Shown here: positions 14,060 to 45,025 of the stretch, in pieces
Numbering within the stretch: the first letter of the stretch is position 1
Layout of the letters: each line of letters begins with the position of its first letter
From: Escherichia phage BMA1
Direction: 5' to 3' (one strand)
Sequence record: PQ178821.1
Length of the DNA: 45,135 nucleotides
Program-made: the position numbers and the translations under genes
Notes under the pieces: generated by a model
Seen by the model: only the letters and a program-made list of their open reading frames with translations
Databases searched by the model: none
Told to the model about the DNA's origin: nothing

Positions 14060-14653
14060 GTGGCTGAAGTCTACTCATTCGCCGCCACTATTGCTACGTG
14101 GGTGGATAAGACGAAGGAGAACAACGATAAGGCGGTGCGGGCGTACGGGATGCAAATACTCGGACGCCTTATTGAGATCTCCCCGGTGGGCGACCCTCGC
14201 CGGTGGAAAATTAACAGGGCTTACGCGCTGGCCCGCCAGCACGCGAACAAGGTGAACGCCGCGCAGCGTCGCAAGAATGGTGGCAAACTGAAGCGTGGGC
14301 AGAAAAAGCACGCCAGCGTGCTGGTATCATTCAAGACTAAAAACGGCAACGTCACGTTCCGCCAGCGTGGCTGGGCTGCGAAGAATTACACCGGCGGACG
14401 CTTCCGGGGAAACTGGCAGGTTACGTTCGACCGACCGGCGGTTGGCGCTATCGACCGCGTGGACAAGGCCGGAACGGCAACATTAGCCGCTGGGCGTGAA
14501 GTGCTGGCGCATTACGATTCCGGTGAATACGGGTCGATCTGGTTTACTAACAACGTGCCATACGCGCAGCGACTTGAGTATGGCTGGAGTAAACAAGCGC
14601 CCGCGGGGATTGTTCGCGTCGTAGCGGCAGAAATTAATTCGAAGGTGAAATAA
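14060..14653 (+). CDS. neck / tail completion protein candidate (197 aa, GTG start)
   Basis: Position between head-tail joining genes and tail terminator-like gene. Confidence 0.5.
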   Translation: MAEVYSFAATIATWVDKTKENNDKAVRAYGMQILGRLIEISPVGDPRRWKINRAYALARQHANKVNAAQRRKNGGKLKRGQKKHASVLVSFKTKNGNVTFRQRGWAAKNYTGGRFRGNWQVTFDRPAVGAIDRVDKAGTATLAAGREVLAHYDSGEYGSIWFTNNVPYAQRLEYGWSKQAPAGIVRVVAAEINSKVK

Positions 14654-15075
14654 TGAGCAATACCGCAATCCGCAAAGCGCTTAACAGCGTGGTTGAAGAG
14701 TTATCGGCAAGCCTGAGCACAAGCCAGCGTCCGATTAGGGTTAACTGGGAGAACGTGAGCGGCGACCACGCAAACGGCAGCGGTGTCTACCTGGAGCCGT
14801 ACCTGCTACCGGCCCCGACCCAGTTTGTGGGCTTACAGCAGAAGGGTCGGATCTATGCTGGCGTATATCAGGTTGCCGTGGTGTTTCCCGCAGGAACTGG
14901 AACACAGTACGCGAGCGAACTGGCAGACGCCATCGCTACGTCTGATAAGTGGCTGGCGGTGAAGATTTCCGGTGCGTCATTTCAGCTTCAGGACGCGCCA
15001 TACACCAGTTCAGTGATTGAAGACGTTGATCGCGCCCGCATCGTGGTTACAGTACCCTACACCTGTTGCGCCTGA
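14653..15075 (+). CDS. tail terminator-like protein candidate (140 aa)
   Basis: ATGA coupling; position immediately upstream of major tail protein. Confidence 0.45.
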   Translation: MSNTAIRKALNSVVEELSASLSTSQRPIRVNWENVSGDHANGSGVYLEPYLLPAPTQFVGLQQKGRIYAGVYQVAVVFPAGTGTQYASELADAIATSDKWLAVKISGASFQLQDAPYTSSVIEDVDRARIVVTVPYTCCA

Positions 15076-15136: not shown

Positions 15137-15862
15137 ATGGGTTATCAACTTCCTAACGGGTCTAGCGTCCAGATTGGGTCCGTACTGGGCAACGGCATCG
15201 CTGTTACAGCAGCTACCAACGCCGCCGCGTCGATCTCCGACCTTACGCAAGGTTGCGTAATTACCTGCGCGGAGTCTCACGGTCTGGTTGTTGGCGACGT
15301 TGTTATGTTCACTAAAACCCCGTGGGTCCGTGCGCTGAACCGCGCGTTCATCGTTGGTAAAGTATCTGGGAACGACGTTACACTGGCGCGCTTCGATACT
15401 CAAGACGCCACCAAATACCCGACCGGTGCTTTCGGCGTAGGCACACCAGGCGAGGTGGTGAAGGTGTCGAGCTTTATCGACTTCCCGTTTATCACTAACG
15501 TCGCCGTGTCTGGTGGCGACCAGCAGACTACTACCTTCCAGCCGTTGCAGGTGAATACCGCGATTAGTCTGAATACCACGAAAAACCCGTTGGTCCAGAC
15601 TTACACCTTCACCCATGACGAAGAAGACCCGATCCGCCCGATTCTGGAAGACCTGGACGACACACAGAAAACCACTGTGATTAAGTTCACTAACCCGGCA
15701 GCGGCAAGCGGCAAAGGTGAGATCCGCATTTACCCGGCTAAGGTGTCTTTCCAGAAGATTCCATCGGCTGAAGTAAACAACGTGGAGACGGTGGAGTCCA
15801 CTCTGACCATGCAATCCGATATGGTTATTTACCGTAAGGACCTGGTTGAAGCGCTGTCGTAA
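15137..15862 (+). CDS. major tail (tube) protein (241 aa)
   Basis: Position before chaperone/tape-measure; followed by terminator. Confidence 0.75.
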   Translation: MGYQLPNGSSVQIGSVLGNGIAVTAATNAAASISDLTQGCVITCAESHGLVVGDVVMFTKTPWVRALNRAFIVGKVSGNDVTLARFDTQDATKYPTGAFGVGTPGEVVKVSSFIDFPFITNVAVSGGDQQTTTFQPLQVNTAISLNTTKNPLVQTYTFTHDEEDPIRPILEDLDDTQKTTVIKFTNPAAASGKGEIRIYPAKVSFQKIPSAEVNNVETVESTLTMQSDMVIYRKDLVEALS

Positions 15863-15892: not shown

Positions 15893-15915
15893 GGGGCCGT
15901 ACTGGCCCCTTTTTT
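15893..15915 (+). terminator. rho-independent terminator
   Basis: GGGGCC gtact GGCCCC followed by TTTTTT. Confidence 0.6.
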
Positions 15916-15931
15916 ATTGGAGAATACTACA

Positions 15932-16294
15932 ATGGCTAAAGCACCACTTTTCACACTTGACCCTAAGCCTACCTTTAAGCTGCCGATTGAGATCCCGCGC
16001 CCAGGCGAAAACGAACCGGGCAAAATGACGTTTACAGTACGCCACCGCCCTATCGACGAATTTTCGCAGACCATGCAGGACACGGAGCGCAAGTTGTCGG
16101 AATATGATGACAATGACCCGGACGGCTTTAACGTTATGGTCGAGGCCATCATGCACGTCGCAGAAGGCTGGAATCTGCCAGACGAATTTAACGCGGAGAA
16201 CGTCCGCCGCCTGGTGGTCAACTATCCGCGCGCGTTCGGCGTGTTCCACACTTCGTACTATCTCGAACTGATGGGATTGCGTGAAAAAAACTAA
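15932..16294 (+). CDS. tail assembly chaperone (lambda G-like)
   Basis: Small acidic ORF between major tail and tape measure, ending at a poly-A slippery site. Confidence 0.75.
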   Translation: MAKAPLFTLDPKPTFKLPIEIPRPGENEPGKMTFTVRHRPIDEFSQTMQDTERKLSEYDDNDPDGFNVMVEAIMHVAEGWNLPDEFNAENVRRLVVNYPRAFGVFHTSYYLELMGLREKN

Positions 16295-16608
16295 TTGAGG
16301 CGGCGCGACGCTTTTATGGCCCGCCGCCACCCTCCGAAGATTTAGCCGCTAGTTTATGGGGTGCGGCCCCCGAAGATGTTTGTCCGCCTGTTGCGCTATG
16401 GCCTGACAACGCGAAGATAGTCGCAGTATTCACAGATTGCTCCACGCAATGGCGCACCGGATTTGGTGGCGCATACGGCATCGACTACGGCGTGCTGGAG
16501 TGGTTATTTAAGATGCACGGTATCGAAAACGAGCAGCGCGCGTTTAAAGATATCAAGCTAATGGAACGCATCGCGCTTGATGAAATGGCGCAGCAGAACC
16601 CCGCATAG
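15932..16608 (+). CDS. tail assembly chaperone -1 frameshift fusion (GT-like)
   Basis: Slip at A_AAA_AAC (16285..16291) continues in -1 frame as KKLIEAARRFYGPPPP... to TAG at 16606..16608. Confidence 0.65.
16285..16291 (+). other. programmed -1 ribosomal frameshift slippery heptamer A_AAA_AAC
   Basis: XXXYYYZ heptamer in zero frame of the chaperone gene, 4 nt before its stop; -1 frame stays open for ~105 codons. Confidence 0.6.
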
Positions 16609-16610
16609 TG

Positions 16611-16929
16611 AAGCGGGACAGGCGGGACGTCCCGTTTTGTCCCGCCTCTGTAAAACCACATATCTAATCACTTTTATTGCATAAACTCAAAGCGGGACAG
16701 GCGGGACGTCCCGTTTTGTCACACCCTGTAAATGTGCATACCTATGCAGATTTCGTGCATAAACCAAACGGGACAAAAAGCGGGACAAACACGAGGCGGG
16801 ACAAAGCGGGACAGCACCCCGTCCCCGCCAGTGCTGCCGCGGTTTTTAGCCGATCGGGACAGCGGGACAGCACCCCAGTCTTTCAGACTAGACGGGGGTC
16901 AATGGCCCCCCTCGTCTGAGACTGAATAA
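16611..16929. repeat. GCGGGACA iteron array with tandem ~76-bp subunits and terminal hairpin (copy 1)
   Basis: At least 9 GCGGGACA-like units; palindromes GCGGGACGTCCCG+TTTT at 16622..16638 and 16701..16717; 3' part near-identical to 44851..45025. Confidence 0.7.
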
Positions 16930-16992
16930 GGTTTGTTTTGAAATCGCTGATACAATATCCATCGGCAACTGCATAAAAAAGGGGACTGCATA

Positions 16993-19635
16993 ATGGCAGA
17001 TCAGGCAGCAGGCATCACGCTAAAGGCTGATGTTGCACAAATCAGAACGGCAAATACTGTGCTGGACTCCTTCGCACAGAAATCCGAGAACACAGAAAAC
17101 AAGGTTAAGAAATTAAACGACACCCTCGGCAAATCCAAAAAGGTGACGAGTGACGCCGCGGGCGGAATGGAAAAGCTGGCGAATGAATCGCAGCGCGCCG
17201 CCGATGGCATGACGAAACAGGAGCGACTTGCCAACAGGTTAGGAATGTCGACCAAAAACCTGGGCTTTGCCTCGCGTAACGCCGCATTCCAGTTACAGGA
17301 TATCGCAGTTACGCTTGAGATGGGGATGCCTGTTCACCGCGTCATGCTTCAGCAGCTACCGCAGCTAACTGGGGCGTTCGGTGGACTGGGTAACACGCTG
17401 CGTTATGTTGCGGGCTTCCTCGGGCCAGTAGGGATCGGCCTTGCCGCCGTAACGGCAACGTTAGGCGTGGGAGTGGCAATTACGTCCCGCGCAGAGAACC
17501 AGGTCGCCGCGCTTAACAAGACGCTGGCACTTTCCGGTAACATTTCCGGCCTGACGGCAAACCAGATCCTGGTGCTATCCGAGAACGCAGAGCGCATGGG
17601 CGGGTCGTTCCGCAAGACGCGTGACACAATCCAGGCGCTGGCGGCGGCTGGTGTGAAAGCGGGTGCGGACTTCGGCGCACTGGCGAAGGTGGTGAATGAC
17701 TTCTCGAAGGTGTCCAGCCAGCCGATCGAAGATGTGGTCGCGGCGGTGGCGAAGCTGTCAACCGACCCGGTAGGCGGCTTGCGCGCACTGGCGGATAAGT
17801 ATCACGTTGTAAACGAAGCGCAGATCCAGCAGGTACAATCCCTGGTGGATATGGGTCGTGAGACTGAAGCGGTTGCGTTGGCTAACAAAACCGCCGCCGC
17901 GTCGTTCACCACTATGACCAACGATATCAAGGCGAACATGGGTACGCTTGAGCGTTCTATGAACGTCGTCACATCGGCAGCTAAATCCATGTGGGACGCC
18001 ATCCTGGATGTGGGTCGCGCGCAGTCCTCCAATGAGTCAGAGATGAAAGCGCGTGAATCCTTGCAGCGCATGACCACTGCTTACTATGCCGAGATGAAAG
18101 CGGTAAACGCTGCCGGTGGGGTTATGACCGAAGCGCAGAAAGCACGTATTAACATGCTTTACAGCGAACTGGTCGCCCAGGAAAAGGTAGTGGCGTCGCT
18201 CACCCTGCGTAACCGTGCGGAGCGAGACAACGCCCGCGCCGCAGACGAATCCGCAAAGGCGAACGAGGAGGCCAACCGCACCGCCCGCGACCGCGCCGCG
18301 TTTGAAAAGGAGTACGCAACTAACGCGAAGAAGCGCGCCGACGAGATCGCCCGCCTCAATTTGCTTAATAAGCGCGGCGTTATTGATGAGAAAGAGCTTG
18401 CCGAGGCGGTGAAGCAGGTAAACGAGCGCTACAAAGACCCGGCCCCGAAGAAGGCCGCGGCAGTTCGAGTCGATGCCGGGCTGAAAATGCTGGAAGTCGC
18501 GCGAAGCGAATTAGCCCAGCTTCGTGAGTCTGGAAAGCAGATCGAAGCCAACGCATCGACGCAGACCCGCACGCAACGCGCGCAAGCGGCCCTAAACAAG
18601 CTGATCGCGGATAATGAGCAGTTAATCGCCGCAAGCAAAGAAAGAGCACTAACGGCAGCAGAGAAGCAGCAATTAGTCGAGTTCGGGCGCGTGAAGGAAG
18701 TCCGCGAGCAGATCGTCGAAGAAGCCAAATTGCTGGACGCGAAAGAGAAGCAGGTCAAGGCGCACGCGCAGATCGATGCCTTCGTTAAGAACCAGAACGC
18801 CGAGCTAAAAGCCACCGCTGCGGGCTATGCGCTTTCCACTCGCGAAGCGGCAAACCTGCGTGATGAATTGCAGCTAATTGACCGCCTGAAGCGGGTTGGC
18901 GCTAACGATACCGATATAGACAAGGCGGTGTCTAAGCTGCGTGAAGTGCAGGAAGCACAGACCGGTGCTAACGCCTCGCTATGGGATGGCTTCAGCCGCG
19001 GGCTTAAGGATAGTGTGGATGATATGGGTAACGGATATACGCAGATGACGTCGCTCACAAAATTCACGTTCAGCGCTATGCAAGACACGATGAACGAGTT
19101 TTTCGAGACGGGCAAGCTGAACGCAAAGGATATGGTTAAGTCCATCCTTAGCGAATTAATCAAGCTGGCTACCTCGCAGGCTTTCAAGTCGATCGTTAGC
19201 GCTTTCGGTGGCGACGGCGGCAAAAACGGATTGTTCGGCGCTATCTTCTCGGGCCTCACCAAGAATGCGGACGGCGGAGCGTACGCAGGAGGCAATCTCG
19301 CGGCCTATTCCGGGAAAGTGGTAAGCCAGCCTACCTTTTTCAGTTATGGCGTCCAGGCGTTCGCTAAGGGCGCTGGGTTGATGGGTGAGGCTGGACCCGA
19401 GGCCATCATGCCACTGAAGCGCGGGCCGGACGGGAAACTGGGCGTTGCCGCGTCTGGCGTAGGTGGGGGGATGGTCGTGACGACTAACGTTTACACGGGG
19501 ACCGGTAAAACGGATACCAGTGTCAGCGGGCCGGACCCCCGTACCGCGCAGGCGTTCGGCAAGCAAATCACCGAGGCGGTGAAGTCCGAGATCGTGAAGG
19601 CAACGAAACCGGGTGGTGTACTTTACAAACGATGA
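16993..19635 (+). CDS. tail tape measure protein (880 aa)
   Basis: Long Ala/Gln/Lys-rich helical protein downstream of G/GT chaperone genes. Confidence 0.9.
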   Translation: MADQAAGITLKADVAQIRTANTVLDSFAQKSENTENKVKKLNDTLGKSKKVTSDAAGGMEKLANESQRAADGMTKQERLANRLGMSTKNLGFASRNAAFQLQDIAVTLEMGMPVHRVMLQQLPQLTGAFGGLGNTLRYVAGFLGPVGIGLAAVTATLGVGVAITSRAENQVAALNKTLALSGNISGLTANQILVLSENAERMGGSFRKTRDTIQALAAAGVKAGADFGALAKVVNDFSKVSSQPIEDVVAAVAKLSTDPVGGLRALADKYHVVNEAQIQQVQSLVDMGRETEAVALANKTAAASFTTMTNDIKANMGTLERSMNVVTSAAKSMWDAILDVGRAQSSNESEMKARESLQRMTTAYYAEMKAVNAAGGVMTEAQKARINMLYSELVAQEKVVASLTLRNRAERDNARAADESAKANEEANRTARDRAAFEKEYATNAKKRADEIARLNLLNKRGVIDEKELAEAVKQVNERYKDPAPKKAAAVRVDAGLKMLEVARSELAQLRESGKQIEANASTQTRTQRAQAALNKLIADNEQLIAASKERALTAAEKQQLVEFGRVKEVREQIVEEAKLLDAKEKQVKAHAQIDAFVKNQNAELKATAAGYALSTREAANLRDELQLIDRLKRVGANDTDIDKAVSKLREVQEAQTGANASLWDGFSRGLKDSVDDMGNGYTQMTSLTKFTFSAMQDTMNEFFETGKLNAKDMVKSILSELIKLATSQAFKSIVSAFGGDGGKNGLFGAIFSGLTKNADGGAYAGGNLAAYSGKVVSQPTFFSYGVQAFAKGAGLMGEAGPEAIMPLKRGPDGKLGVAASGVGGGMVVTTNVYTGTGKTDTSVSGPDPRTAQAFGKQITEAVKSEIVKATKPGGVLYKR

Positions 19636-27153: not shown

Positions 27154-28893
27154 ATGGCAGCGGGTACTCTATCCGTAACGAATAACAGCAAGGCGGTTGT
27201 AGGGGTAGGCACAACGTTTACCGCGTTTAACGCTGGCGACTTCTTAACGCTGGTTGTAGGACAAGTCCCCTACACCGTGGCAATCGCGTCCATTGAAAGC
27301 GACACGTCGCTTACTCTGGTTCTGCCGTTCGACGGCCCAACGGCAACCGGCCTTGCGTGGGATGGCGTTAAGCGCGACACCATGTCCCTGGCAACTATGG
27401 GCGTGACCGTCCAGGCACAGAAAGCATTGCGCTTGATGATTGCGGATGAAAACAACTGGCGTGCAATCTTCGGCGACGCTGAAGAGATCACCATTACGCT
27501 GCCCAACGGGCAAGTTATGCAGGGTATGTCATGGGGCTATCTGTCGCAGTTGATGAAACAGATCGACCCCGTTGAGATGCGCAACCTGCAACAACAAGCC
27601 GCCGCATCGGAAGCAGCCGCGCAAGGATTTCGTAACGAGGCTGAAGGATTTCGAGACGGCGCGCAAGGATACCGCAACGAGGCGCTCCAATTCCGCACCG
27701 ACTGCGAAGGGCTGAAGAACGAAACGACAAACCTTCGCAACGATGCGCTCCAATTCCGCACCGACTGCGAAGGGCTGAAGAACGAAACGACAAACCTTCG
27801 CAACGATGCTAACACAGCTAAGACTGGCGCGGAGACGGCACGCGATCAGGCGCAGAACATCGCCGACGGTATGGACCCTGGCCAGTATATGCAGAAATCC
27901 GCAAACCTGAGCGATGTCGCTGATAAGGCGCAAGGCCGGGCGAATATGGGACTCGGCCCTACCGATGCCGTGGTGTTCGGAGGGGCTACCCTCAACGGTC
28001 CCTCGCGCGTCGACGGACCGCTGTTGCTCGGCAGGCAGCAGTGGGATGGGTCTAGCTGGGGGAGCTACGGACTACAATCGTCATTCGTCATCATGTCGCC
28101 GGATGGAGACTCCGAGCCGGGATTTTACATCAGGCCGCTATCGGGTGCGCCTGGGTACGCAACGTCGTTCACCTATAATCTCGCGATTAATCTTTTCAGC
28201 ACCGGTGCTCGCATCAAGGCGGTTAACTTCTCATCCAGCACTACGACTATGGGTTATAGCGAGATGTGGTCACGTGCATGTTTCCAGGGGCAGCCATACG
28301 ACGCCCAGGCGGGGGTTGAGAACTACCAATCGCTTGTCGCCGGTGCTTGCGGGACTATCGGACAGGGCTTTTACGGTGGCGTTGCGTTCGGCATGATGAC
28401 TTCTGGCAGGGCTGGGTGGCCTGTCGGTCAGATCTCGATCGGCGCACAAGACCGGGCGGCGGACGGCACTATCGGCCTGCAAATGCACTTCCGGTTTCAT
28501 TCATCCGGTAACATTACGTATACGGGGCCGGCGGGGTCGGGGTCATTCCAGCAAATCCCGGCATCTGACCGCAACATTAAGCATGATATTAAAGACGATA
28601 AATCCAGCACAGCATACGATAACATTCGAGCCATTCGATTCCGTAATTTCGTATTTAATGATGACGAGCAGGAGCGTATTCGTCGCGGGATTATCGCACA
28701 GGAGCTTGAAGAAATCGACCCGCTTTATGTTAAGCACCGCGAATACCACAACATGGAGCTTAACGGGCCGAAGATTACGCGACTGGAGCTTGACACGACG
28801 CCGCTGTTACTGGACACAATGCGAGCGTTGCAGGATACGATTAAGCAGGTGGAGGAGTTGAAGGCAGAGATCGCGGCGTTGAAGCAGGCGTAA
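27154..28893 (+). CDS. tail fiber protein with C-terminal S74-type intramolecular chaperone domain (579 aa)
   Basis: Heptad-like FRNEA/YRNEA repeats; SDRNIKHDI autocleavage-type motif near 28561; coiled-coil C-terminus. Confidence 0.85.
   Translation: MAAGTLSVTNNSKAVVGVGTTFTAFNAGDFLTLVVGQVPYTVAIASIESDTSLTLVLPFDGPTATGLAWDGVKRDTMSLATMGVTVQAQKALRLMIADENNWRAIFGDAEEITITLPNGQVMQGMSWGYLSQLMKQIDPVEMRNLQQQAAASEAAAQGFRNEAEGFRDGAQGYRNEALQFRTDCEGLKNETTNLRNDALQFRTDCEGLKNETTNLRNDANTAKTGAETARDQAQNIADGMDPGQYMQKSANLSDVADKAQGRANMGLGPTDAVVFGGATLNGPSRVDGPLLLGRQQWDGSSWGSYGLQSSFVIMSPDGDSEPGFYIRPLSGAPGYATSFTYNLAINLFSTGARIKAVNFSSSTTTMGYSEMWSRACFQGQPYDAQAGVENYQSLVAGACGTIGQGFYGGVAFGMMTSGRAGWPVGQISIGAQDRAADGTIGLQMHFRFHSSGNITYTGPAGSGSFQQIPASDRNIKHDIKDDKSSTAYDNIRAIRFRNFVFNDDEQERIRRGIIAQELEEIDPLYVKHREYHNMELNGPKITRLELDTTPLLLDTMRALQDTIKQVEELKAEIAALKQA
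27682..27807 (+). repeat. perfect in-frame tandem duplication (2 x 63 bp) inside tail fiber gene
   Basis: 27682..27744 identical to 27745..27807; encodes ALQFRTDCEGLKNETTNLRND twice. Confidence 0.8.
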
Positions 28894-32841: not shown

Positions 32842-34262
32842 TTGCGCGCCTTTTTAGCTTTCATGTATTCCATCAAGTCGTCCTGAATATCTCGCTTACT
32901 GTCGCGACGCTCGGCGACCAATTCGTCCAGTGTCCCGCGCGCCTGGATAATGTAGACGAATACCGGACGGGGGTGTCCTGCTTGCATCTGGCGAACCGGC
33001 CCGATACGTTCAACGATCTGCGAAAAGTGCTCAAAGTTCCAGGTATCGGAGAAGATTGCCAGGTGATGCCCGCCGTCCTGCAAGTTAAGGCCGTGGCCTG
33101 CCGATGCTGGGTGTGCAAACATGATGGGGATCTCGCCCCTGTTCCACGCTTCCATATCCTTATTGCCCTGCTTACCTTTACCCAACGCAACGCCGTGCGG
33201 AAATTTCTTCTTAAGACGTGCCAGGTCATGCTTATACTGATACGCAACGAGCAACGGCGCTCCGTTCAACTCCTCCACGATACTTTCCAGCGCGTCCAGC
33301 TTCGCGTCGTGAATCTTCACCCACTCGTCGGTCCGTTCGCCGTCTTCGTCCACCTTATACACGGCCCCGGATGCAAGCTGAAGGCACTTAATTGTCTTCG
33401 ACGCAGCGTTCGCCGCCTCCACTGTTCCGCTTTCCAGTTCGGCAAATAGCTCGCTTTCAAACTGGTCGTAAATCTTGCGGGCTTTCTTCGGCAGATCCAC
33501 AACAACCGGCGTATATATTGGCTTGTCACATCCGAAGTATTCAGCCGCGTCAACGGTGAGGGATACATCAGACAGGCGTTGTTGTATTTCTTTCTCGGAG
33601 TTCTTTAGCGGGGCGTGCTGCATAGTGAAGCTACCAGGCTTAACAGGCTTGCTAATGAACCAGCGATCGGTAAATGCCTTATAGCTACTGCCGAGGCGTT
33701 CGCCGCCGTCGACAAACCACGTCTGACCCCATAAGTCTTTCAAGCCATTTGGCGCGGGTGTGCCGGTCAGGTTAATCCAGCGCTTGACGTGCTTATGTGC
33801 GATCGCTGCCAGCGCACGGGCGCGCTTACTTCCCTGCTTACTCCTGTAGCCTTTCAGCTTAGTCGATTCATCGGCAACAACGACCGTAAAGGGCCACGCA
33901 TCGCCGTAATAGTCTACCAGCCACTCAACCACATCGTAGTTAACACAAACCACGTTAGCGTCGCTCTCCAGCGCGGCTATGCGGTCTTTTTCTGATCCTG
34001 TGCCGTCTACTACCAGCAAGGCGGGGAATCGCCATTTTTCTTGCTCCGGGGGCCACGTACCTGACGCAACGCGCAGCGGGGCCAGCACCAGTACGCGGTC
34101 CTCCAGGCTGGACAGGATACCAGTCTGGAACATTTTATTCAGCGCCCACATTGTCGCGCCGGTTTTACCGGATCCCATTGTCGCCCAGATATTACATCGC
34201 TTATGCTTGAGGATGAACGCGGTTATCAACTTCTGATATTCGCGACGTCGGAATCTTGCCAT
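32838..34262 (-). CDS. SNF2-family helicase (474 aa from ATG 34262)
   Basis: Walker A GSGKTG, DEST box, LTGTP motif, C-terminal helicase motifs. Confidence 0.8.
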   Translation of the reverse strand: MARFRRREYQKLITAFILKHKRCNIWATMGSGKTGATMWALNKMFQTGILSSLEDRVLVLAPLRVASGTWPPEQEKWRFPALLVVDGTGSEKDRIAALESDANVVCVNYDVVEWLVDYYGDAWPFTVVVADESTKLKGYRSKQGSKRARALAAIAHKHVKRWINLTGTPAPNGLKDLWGQTWFVDGGERLGSSYKAFTDRWFISKPVKPGSFTMQHAPLKNSEKEIQQRLSDVSLTVDAAEYFGCDKPIYTPVVVDLPKKARKIYDQFESELFAELESGTVEAANAASKTIKCLQLASGAVYKVDEDGERTDEWVKIHDAKLDALESIVEELNGAPLLVAYQYKHDLARLKKKFPHGVALGKGKQGNKDMEAWNRGEIPIMFAHPASAGHGLNLQDGGHHLAIFSDTWNFEHFSQIVERIGPVRQMQAGHPRPVFVYIIQARGTLDELVAERRDSKRDIQDDLMEYMKAKKARK

Positions 34263-34266
34263 ATCT

Positions 34267-34485
34267 TTATTCCGCCTTTTTCCAGACTTCTGTCTCACTG
34301 TTCCAGTTCCTTTTTGTGGCGTCGTAGTTGGTGGCGTGTCCGATGTGCACACCGGTAGCCCGGAAGCTCTTAAACTTCTGCCAGCACACCGTCAACGGCA
34401 GCGGGTAACTCATGCCAGCAATAAACCACACGCGATCGCCCGGTTTACATTCGCCCAGCTTGGTGAGCCGGTAATGTTCTTTCAT
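34267..34485 (-). CDS. hypothetical protein (72 aa)
   Basis: GGGAG RBS; preceded on the - strand by a GC hairpin with T-run. Confidence 0.45.
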   Translation of the reverse strand: MKEHYRLTKLGECKPGDRVWFIAGMSYPLPLTVCWQKFKSFRATGVHIGHATNYDATKRNWNSETEVWKKAE

Positions 34486-34496
34486 CGTCATGTCTC

Positions 34497-34521
34497 CCAA
34501 AAATGGCGGGACAAGCCCGCC
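34497..34521 (-). terminator. hairpin plus T-run on - strand (terminator/attenuator)
   Basis: GGCGGG cttgt CCCGCC followed by TTTTT on the - strand. Confidence 0.45.
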
Positions 34522-34535
34522 GTATTTATTATTTA

Positions 34536-34709
34536 TTATTTTTGTTCCGCACGGTAGCGGCGCTGCCGTTCGCGCTCTTTCTTATTGCGGCACGATTTGC
34601 ACTCGGCCCGATACCCGTCGGGGCTACGCGCCGTCTTACCGGTGTACTTGTGGAACTGGGATAGCGGTTTAACGCAACCGCAATTACTGCAGCGTTTCTC
34701 TTCAATCAT
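34536..34709 (-). CDS. small zinc-ribbon-like protein (57 aa)
   Basis: CSNCGC ... CKSCRN Cys pairs; GAGGA RBS. Confidence 0.45.
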   Translation of the reverse strand: MIEEKRCSNCGCVKPLSQFHKYTGKTARSPDGYRAECKSCRNKKERERQRRYRAEQK

Positions 34710-34768
34710 TTCTAAAATCCTCGTTAGTGCTAACCTGCTCACTATACTGTTAAGCGACCAATTCAGCA

Positions 34769-35338
34769 NACAATAAATCNCNGTCGGCTATGTTGTCGAT
34801 GACGGCCGTAATATTCAACAAGCAACTCAACCACATCGTAGTTAACACAAAACACGTTAGCGTCGCTCTCCAGCGCGGCTATGCTGTCATTTTCTGATCC
34901 TGTTCCGACTACAACCACCAAGGCGGGCACTCGCCATTATTCTTCCTCCGGGGGCNAACGGCAGCGGGTAACTCATGCCAGCAATAAACCACACGCGATC
35001 GCCCGGTTTACATTCGCCCAGCTTGGTGAGCCGGTAATGTTCTTTCATCGTCATGTCTCCCAAAAATGGCGGGACAAGCCCGCCGTATTTATTATTTATT
35101 ATTTTTGTTCCGCACGGTAGCGGCGCTGCCGTTCGCGCTCTTTCTTATTGCGGCACGATTTGCACTCGGCCCGATACCCNGTCGGGGCTACGCGCCGTCT
35201 TACCGGTGTACTTGTGGAACTGGGATAGCGGTTTAACGCAACCGCAATTACTGCAGCGTTTCTCTTCAATCATTTCTAAAATCCTCGTTAGTGCTAACCT
35301 GCTCACTATACTGTTAAGCGACCAATTCAGCAACCAAT
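34769..35338. repeat. low-quality chimeric duplicate of 33.9-34.0 kb and 34.39-34.77 kb, probable assembly artifact
   Basis: Contains ambiguous bases at 34769, 34780, 34782, 34956, 35180; near-identical copies of the 34267 and 34536 genes with scattered mismatches. Confidence 0.6.
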
Positions 35339-35592
35339 AAATCACAGTCGGCTATGTTGTCGATGACGCGAACGTCAGCACCGCGGCGGGCCATTCGCTC
35401 ATGTTCTCGCACCTGGTGCGGCTTCGGTTTTCCGCCGGGGCGCTTCACTTCGACGAACACTATTTTGCCGTTGATGATGATAATCAGATCGGGCGCACCC
35501 GCGCGCCCCTCCCATGCCACTTTACGGCAGAATCCGCCTACCTCTTTCACCCGTCGCATCAGGTGGCTTTGAATCCGGCCTTCGGGTGTCAT
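35314..35592 (-). CDS. VRR-NUC domain nuclease (92 aa)
   Basis: GAPDLIII ... VFVEVKRPGGKP...Q pattern typical of VRR-NUC. Confidence 0.7.
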   Translation of the reverse strand: MTPEGRIQSHLMRRVKEVGGFCRKVAWEGRAGAPDLIIIINGKIVFVEVKRPGGKPKPHQVREHERMARRGADVRVIDNIADCDLLVAELVA

Positions 35593-44850: not shown

Positions 44851-45025
44851 TGCATAAACTAAGCGGGACAAAAAGCGGGACAGACAAGGGGCGGGACAAA
44901 GCGGGACAGCACCCCCGTCCCGCCCCGGATGGCGCGGCCTGGCGAGGAGCGGGACAGCGGGACAGCACCCCAGTCTTTCAGACTAGACGGGGGTCAATGG
45001 CCCCCCTCGTCTGAGACTGAATAAA
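44851..45025. repeat. GCGGGACA iteron array with terminal hairpin (copy 2)
   Basis: About 85% identical to 16756..16929 overall; last ~75 bp identical, including the imperfect hairpin. Confidence 0.7.

Follow-up and report, generated by a model that had tools for sequence, protein, structure and literature searches.

In the tail region of Escherichia phage BMA1, an ORF for a putative tail assembly chaperone ends directly after the heptamer A_AAA_AAC, and from the heptamer onwards the -1 frame is open well beyond the stop codon. What does this second frame encode, and how do ribosomes gain access to it? The window that we analysed, i.e. the whole stretch of DNA, is 45,135 nucleotides long (sequence record PQ178821.1) and all positions given below refer to it. 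The reading that we retain, highly probable as judged from the sequence, is a programmed -1 ribosomal frameshift at A_AAA_AAC, of the lambda G/GT type, giving a fusion protein. The chaperone ORF and the -1-frame extension are called G and T below.

Two reading frames between the tube and tape measure genes

The source of the window is, by its sequence, a Dhillonvirus, i.e. an HK578-like E. coli siphophage, and its tail region is 93–95% identical to that of many Escherichia Dhillonvirus phages (JLBYU60, HK578, SECphi18, jat). “Campylobacter phage A144” is also 94.5% identical to BMA1 over 4.6 kb, which suggests a mislabelled host or contamination. The features of the locus are the following:

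14653–15075: tail terminator gene (Pfam)
15137–15862, + strand: major tail (tube) protein gene, 5' neighbour of the chaperone pair (Pfam Phage_tail_3, E = 1e-32; named major tail protein in relatives)
15893–15919, + strand: intrinsic-terminator-like hairpin and T-run between the tube gene and G (GGGGCCGTACTGGCCCC then TTTTTTATTG; hairpin scan)
15932–16294, + strand: G-like tail assembly chaperone ORF, 120 aa, 13.96 kDa (Pfam Phage_TAC_4; PHROG 569)
16282–16284, + strand: -1-frame TGA just 5' of the heptamer, the 5' limit of a productive shift (in all Dhillonvirus loci examined)
16285–16291, + strand: slippery heptamer A_AAA_AAC, giving AAA (Lys) and AAC (Asn) in the 0 frame, in phase with the ORF starting at ATG 15932
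16292–16294, + strand: 0-frame stop TAA adjoining the heptamer, the 3' limit of any productive shift
16291–16608, + strand: T-like extension, translated in the -1 frame once the shift has occurred, 105 codons and TAG
16357–16587, + strand: DUF1799 domain in the extension, fusion residues 143–219 (Pfam PF08809; PHROG 680)
16993–19635, + strand: tape measure protein gene, 3' neighbour of the chaperone pair (Pfam TMP_2, E = 6e-44, plus Tape_meas_lam_C)

The gene order is tail terminator, tube, G/T, tape measure and then minor tail genes resembling lambda M, L and K (Pfam). The neighbouring genes are thereby assigned by Pfam to a lambda-like siphovirus tail module. G (15932–16294) and T (to 16608) lie between the tube gene and the tape measure gene, which is the place of a G/GT pair of the lambda type.

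G starts at ATG 15932, nine bases downstream of a Shine-Dalgarno sequence (GGAG, 15919–15922). Its residues 1–120 align on positions 1–124 of the 124 of Phage_TAC_4 (PF08748; 81.5 bits for a cut-off of 21.1, E = 7.8e-23), and the limits of its CDS are identical in the JLBYU60, jat, EE09 and HK578 records. The ORF ends with CGT GAA AAA AAC TAA, the heptamer furnishing the last two sense codons. The first-pass annotation had rightly recognized the heptamer at 16285–16291 and its phase, but it had the ORF ending 4 nt further on; the distance is 3 nt with the stop included, i.e. the TAA abuts the heptamer.

The -1 frame is open from 16285 to the TAG at 16606–16608. This amounts to 107 codons, 105 of them beyond the two Lys codons of the heptamer, in agreement with the approximately 105 codons announced beforehand. 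The predicted fusion is 225 aa long (25.62 kDa). The earlier description of the extension as Pro-rich and then structured is also borne out: the Pro-rich linker GPPPPSEDLAASL precedes a full-length DUF1799 (PF08809, profile positions 1–80 of 80; 72.7 bits for a cut-off of 26). A single profile, PHROG 17368, covers both the G and T halves. When the fusion was used in a sequence search against solved structures, no meaningful match was found (best E = 0.72).

The overlap of the 0 and -1 frames, bounded by TGA 16282–16284 and TAA 16292–16294, is exactly 7 nt, i.e. the whole heptamer. A junction between the two frames is thus possible within the heptamer and nowhere else. AAAAAAC is present in four copies in the window, both strands considered, for 8.1 expected, and about 4% of the stop-to-stop spans of the window (54% GC) reach at least 107 codons. 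In view of this rarity and of this frequency of long spans, an in-phase heptamer lying in the sole 7-nt overlap is not a matter of chance.

The same 4% could be invoked to hold that the -1 ORF is open by chance, or that it is a remnant in decay without expression. To this reading we give a practically null probability. The frame contains a full-length Pfam domain, and more than 1,100 phage records have homologues of it at this position. Above all, it is ruled out by the strong third-position bias and by the excess of synonymous changes, present in the -1 frame only. Among 21 unique Dhillonvirus G-T sequences, the variable sites at codon positions 1/2/3 number 19/7/68 in T and 10/6/81 in G. Compared with the most diverged member of the genus, the synonymous and nonsynonymous codon changes in T are 32:8 in the -1 frame versus 4:35 and 3:37 in the two others. 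Both frames, G and T, thus evolve as protein-coding, and the extension is, by its pattern of substitutions, under clear purifying selection in the -1 frame from its first codon. In an alignment reaching down to 30% identity, residues K1, L3, A6 and P15 of the extension are invariant, and conservation starts at the two Lys codons of the heptamer.

A coding T frame could still be translated alone, from ATT 16294, by termination-reinitiation at the G stop, or from GTG 16492, so that G and T would be two separate proteins. Some annotations go in this direction: the RefSeq gp16 of HK578 is a separate CDS starting at the ATT whose first base is the last base of the G stop, several records contain a 38-aa DUF1799 protein starting at the GTG, and the T ORF of BrunoManser has an ATG ten codons in. 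We nevertheless hold independent translation for very improbable. The first ATG, GTG or TTG of the BMA1 -1 ORF is at codon 70 (GTG 16492), 45 codons into DUF1799, so that a start there would cut away more than half of a domain that begins at 16357. No Shine-Dalgarno sequence was found before GTG 16492 or ATT 16294. Among relatives the first possible start of T is at codon 32, 45, 70 or 77 and no position is conserved. Protein conservation begins upstream of the ATT, at the Lys codons of the heptamer, and independent translation leaves the conservation of the heptamer at the nucleotide level without explanation.

Conservation of the proposed shift site

To describe the site among relatives we compared 106 loci (GenBank phages and IMG/VR), whose extensions show 39–100% identity and whose G genes end in 42 distinct 3' tails. 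A_AAA_AAC followed immediately by TAA or TGA is present in 104 of them. In none of these 104 loci is the Lys of the heptamer encoded by AAG or its Asn by AAT, while the adjacent Arg and Gly codons use all their synonyms. In the genus itself, no run of invariant synonymous sites in the G-T region is longer than that at 16282–16305 (8 sites, for a background where 72% are variable); it comprises the heptamer, the stop with the spacer, and also the 5' arm of the hairpin described below.

In the two exceptions, as in more distant relatives, the equivalent position is occupied by other slippery motifs. The 3' end of G is GAA AAG TCC TAA in Smarc4, GCA AAG GTC TAA in Rogue1 and GCA AAA GTT TAA in Sushi. 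In the Rhodovulum RS1, Stenotrophomonas CUB19 and Ralstonia YO028_2 phages it is G_GGA_AAC followed by TGA. For the Ralstonia locus, the appearance of an in-frame G-T fusion was discarded as an artefact of the long open -1 frame in GC-rich DNA, the sequence being G_GGA_AAC TGA. A constant strategy and position, with an interchangeable slippery sequence, is a hallmark of the G/GT frameshift. The first-pass annotation had proposed that its reading would fall if no fusion peptides were detected and the -1 ORF were not conserved in relatives; the ORF is conserved together with the site in more than 100 of them, other slippery motifs included.

In all relatives of the XXXAAAC type, the codon directly after the heptamer is a stop, either TAA or TGA, and TAG does not occur there. 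The A at the third position of this stop does not vary, even though the -1-frame residue that it overlaps may be I, K, R or T (columns 8–10 of the A2 alignment). The TAA abutting the heptamer might then be an integral part of the recoding signal, beyond merely ending G, a proposition that we regard as rather unlikely. If it were so, slippage into the -1 frame would compete with slow termination while tRNA-Asn occupies the P site, and the G:GT ratio would vary with release-factor activity and hence with host physiology; the hairpin would be a second stimulator.

The same fusion would arise from transcriptional slippage, with the RNA polymerase adding one A on the A7 run at 16284–16290 in a fraction of the transcripts, standard translation of these, and the junction reading ...EKK-LIEAAR. 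GAAAAAAAC indeed contains seven consecutive A's, A-runs are a known route to the expression of two frames (PMC5009743), and a weak site could supply the low level of fusion that is needed. This origin appears improbable in the light of the relatives that keep the arrangement: some of them have only A6 (GTA or CGA AAA AAC), and others have A3–A4 (GGA AAC, GAA AAG, GCA AAG), which is too short for the polymerase and fits re-pairing of the tRNA. The long homopolymer expected of a transcriptional slippage site is thus not kept across relatives. The strict retention of the C, the phase, the abutting stop and the covariation of a hairpin 7 nt downstream are features of a ribosomal signal.

The candidate stimulatory hairpin and neighbouring elements

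Two further structures downstream of the heptamer have to be located:

16299–16328, + strand: candidate stimulatory hairpin, 7-nt spacer from the heptamer (folding, covariation, synonymous-site constraint)
16623–16640, + strand: palindrome CGGGACGTCCCG then TTTTGT, just past the GT stop (annotated as rho-independent terminator at the corresponding place in HK578)

The first one, whose 7-nt spacer falls in the 5–9 nt of a canonical -1 frameshift signal, has an outer stem of 7 bp, formed by GGCGGCG (16299–16305) and CGCCGCC (16322–16328), and an inner helix of 3 bp (16310–16312 with 16318–16320). Taken as a single sequence its folding energy is not significant (MFE -17.1 kcal/mol, z = -1.72; 13 of 200 shuffles fold as well). 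Covariation was assayed on an ungapped alignment of 46 diverse sequences. Pairing is retained in 70% of cells versus 32–48% when the 3' partners are slid by 1–3 columns; 60 cells are changed on both sides, and none of 500 shuffles, which ignore phylogeny, reaches the observed values. The structure submitted to the test was explicit and came from a member of the alignment, hence a bias in its favour. Pair 17–42 of the alignment (16301/16326) is found as U-A, C-G and U-G, and pair 18–41 (16302/16325) as U-A, C-G, G-C and U-G.

In the 21 unique Dhillonvirus sequences both arms are invariant and the loop sites vary. The GC-rich arms also encode Ala-Ala and Pro-Pro, so that protein constraint adds to their conservation. 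RNAalifold recovers the inner 3-bp helix only. Most sequences from outside the genus do not form the three innermost pairs of the outer stem, i.e. these pairs are Dhillonvirus-specific, and no consistent hairpin was found in the most distant relatives (A_AAG type). Taken together, these results make the hairpin probable, not proven. An Rfam scan of the whole window at gathering thresholds returned no family, be it at the site, at the neighbouring repeats or elsewhere.

These repeats are located in the gap of 384 nt that separates the GT stop from the start of the tape measure gene (16609–16992), where CGGGAC(A) motifs form a dense array (10 on the + strand, 3 on the - strand). CGGGACA occurs 19 times window-wide for 6.0 expected, nearly all copies being in this gap or in a second cluster. 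The palindrome CGGGACGTCCCG with its TTTTGT belongs to a 36-nt unit present in two copies (16611–16646 and 16690–16725); a simple terminator scan of the + strand did not call the one at 16623–16640. The CGGGAC(A) array is kept in 19 unique Dhillonvirus sequences; it may serve to bind a regulator, or belong to a terminator/promoter region that governs the expression of the tape measure gene.

The gap also contains one copy (16756–16929) of a 174-nt direct repeat whose other copy is 28 kb away (44851–45024). The two are 88% identical, with the last ~75 nt identical, and in each a portion of the CGGGACA array is accompanied by a long hairpin (16876–16924; -35.3 kcal/mol, z = -2.65). The repeat, which has no Rfam match, looks like a duplicated regulatory or RNA element before two operons. 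Elsewhere in the window there are near-perfect internal duplications between 33903 and 35368 (34394–34804 with 34957–35368, 100% and 97% identity; 33903–34053 with 34805–34955, 90% identity), and two tandem copies, 98% identical, of a 63-nt unit within a coding region (27673–27798).

Upstream of G, the terminator-like hairpin at 15893–15919 has an equivalent in Klebsiella phage Sushi, where terminators are annotated before and after the G/GT pair, the 5' one at the equivalent place. This suggests that transcriptional attenuation at 15893–15919 also helps to set the stoichiometry of tube, chaperone and tape measure proteins.

Proposed mechanism and comparison with known systems

The match with the G/GT arrangement of tailed phages, put forward from the letters alone, is upheld by the synteny, Phage_TAC_4, a -1 ORF devoid of start and Shine-Dalgarno sequence, the heptamer within the overlap, selection, conservation and the annotated homologues. 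In the programmed ribosomal frameshift that we propose, most ribosomes translating 15932–16294 would stop at TAA 16292 and release the 120-aa G-like chaperone. A minority, probably aided by the hairpin at 16299–16328, would slip back one nucleotide on A_AAA_AAC (16285–16291), read CTA at 16291 and continue to the TAG at 16606–16608. Their product would be a 225-aa GT-like fusion composed of Phage_TAC_4, the Pro-rich linker and DUF1799. If the two products behave like gpG and gpGT of lambda, the G part that they share would coat the tape measure protein and the T domain would recruit the tail tube protein. As in lambda, both would leave before the virion is completed and the efficiency of the frameshift would fix the G:GT ratio.

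We infer the ribosomal nature of the slippage, its efficiency, the slipping tRNA and the binding partners of the products; depending on which tRNA slips, the junction would be ...EKN-LIEAAR or ...EKK-LIEAAR. Frameshifting in E. coli is much weaker on A_AAA_AAC than on A_AAA_AAG (PMC5009743), so the efficiency may be low here, a low ratio with a few percent of the long form being what G/GT needs; in lambda the gpG:gpGT ratio is ~30:1 (PMC5009743). Lambda gpG and gpGT are absent from mature virions (PMC5009743). Mass spectrometry of virions, one of the checks suggested at the outset, would therefore probably be uninformative, and infected cells are the right sample.

A joined G/T CDS is absent from every Dhillonvirus record examined. 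These records name G “hypothetical protein” or “tail length tape measure protein”, and the extension appears as a 38-aa fragment, as an ATT-initiated CDS, or is omitted. In GenBank records of relatives, among them MG065648, T often bears one of these two names as well. In the literature searched on frameshifting in Dhillonvirus or HK578 and on DUF1799 we did not find the site described. The correct annotation for the whole genus would be a joined CDS, 15932–16291 plus 16291–16608. Another annotation problem is seen in the Ioannina record, where a CDS overlapping the T region (locus 1011–1256) is labelled “major tail protein”. The BMA1 case adds little to the biology and its practical value is in annotation; the family with XXXAAAC, an immediate stop and a hairpin could nevertheless serve to test the effect of an adjacent stop on bacterial -1 frameshifting.

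Among known systems, dnaX of E. coli (tau/gamma; A_AAA_AAG and hairpin) shares with BMA1 a Lys-codon heptamer and a downstream stem-loop. dnaX has an upstream Shine-Dalgarno-like stimulator; no convincing element of this type was found upstream of the BMA1 heptamer, where the one candidate, a weak GGGA (16273–16276) within a variable Gly codon, was rejected as unsupported. The dnaX shift is moreover highly efficient and yields the shorter product (PMC4066793), whereas the BMA1 product is longer. IS1 insA-insB' has the identical A_AAA_AAC in the same host and is a proven natural frameshift of low efficiency (PMC4066793). It differs in producing a transposase and not a phage chaperone, and no stimulator is established for it (PMC4066793), in contrast to the BMA1 hairpin with its 7-nt spacer and covariation support.

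Homologous pairs are annotated in Sushi (KT001920; T1-like), with a joined CDS named “tape measure chaperone”, and in Serratia phage Smarc4, with a joined “pre-tape measure frameshift protein”. These phages have a homologous DUF1799 T domain (30–39% identity), the same synteny, a shift position two codons before the G stop and terminators flanking the pair. Disparities nevertheless appear: their slippery sequences are the tetramers A_AAA or A_AAG, their stop is one codon further on, and no consistent hairpin is seen.

The reference remains lambda G/GT (Levin, Hendrix & Casjens 1993; Xu, Hendrix & Duda 2004, 2013, 2014, as summarised in PMC5009743). In both phages the tube and tape measure genes enclose two ORFs, of which the second is in the -1 frame and has no start of its own, a slippery heptamer is located near the end of G, and a short abundant product and a rare long one are expected. 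The BMA1 heptamer is A_AAA_AAC instead of G_GGA_AAG, its stop abuts the heptamer with a frame overlap of 7 nt only, and its downstream hairpin is apparently conserved. The BMA1 families are Phage_TAC_4 and DUF1799, and the likeness to gpG and gpT is drawn from the arrangement. The G/GT frameshift is thus of an already known kind, of which BMA1 is a regular class member, the only new element being the annotation gap.
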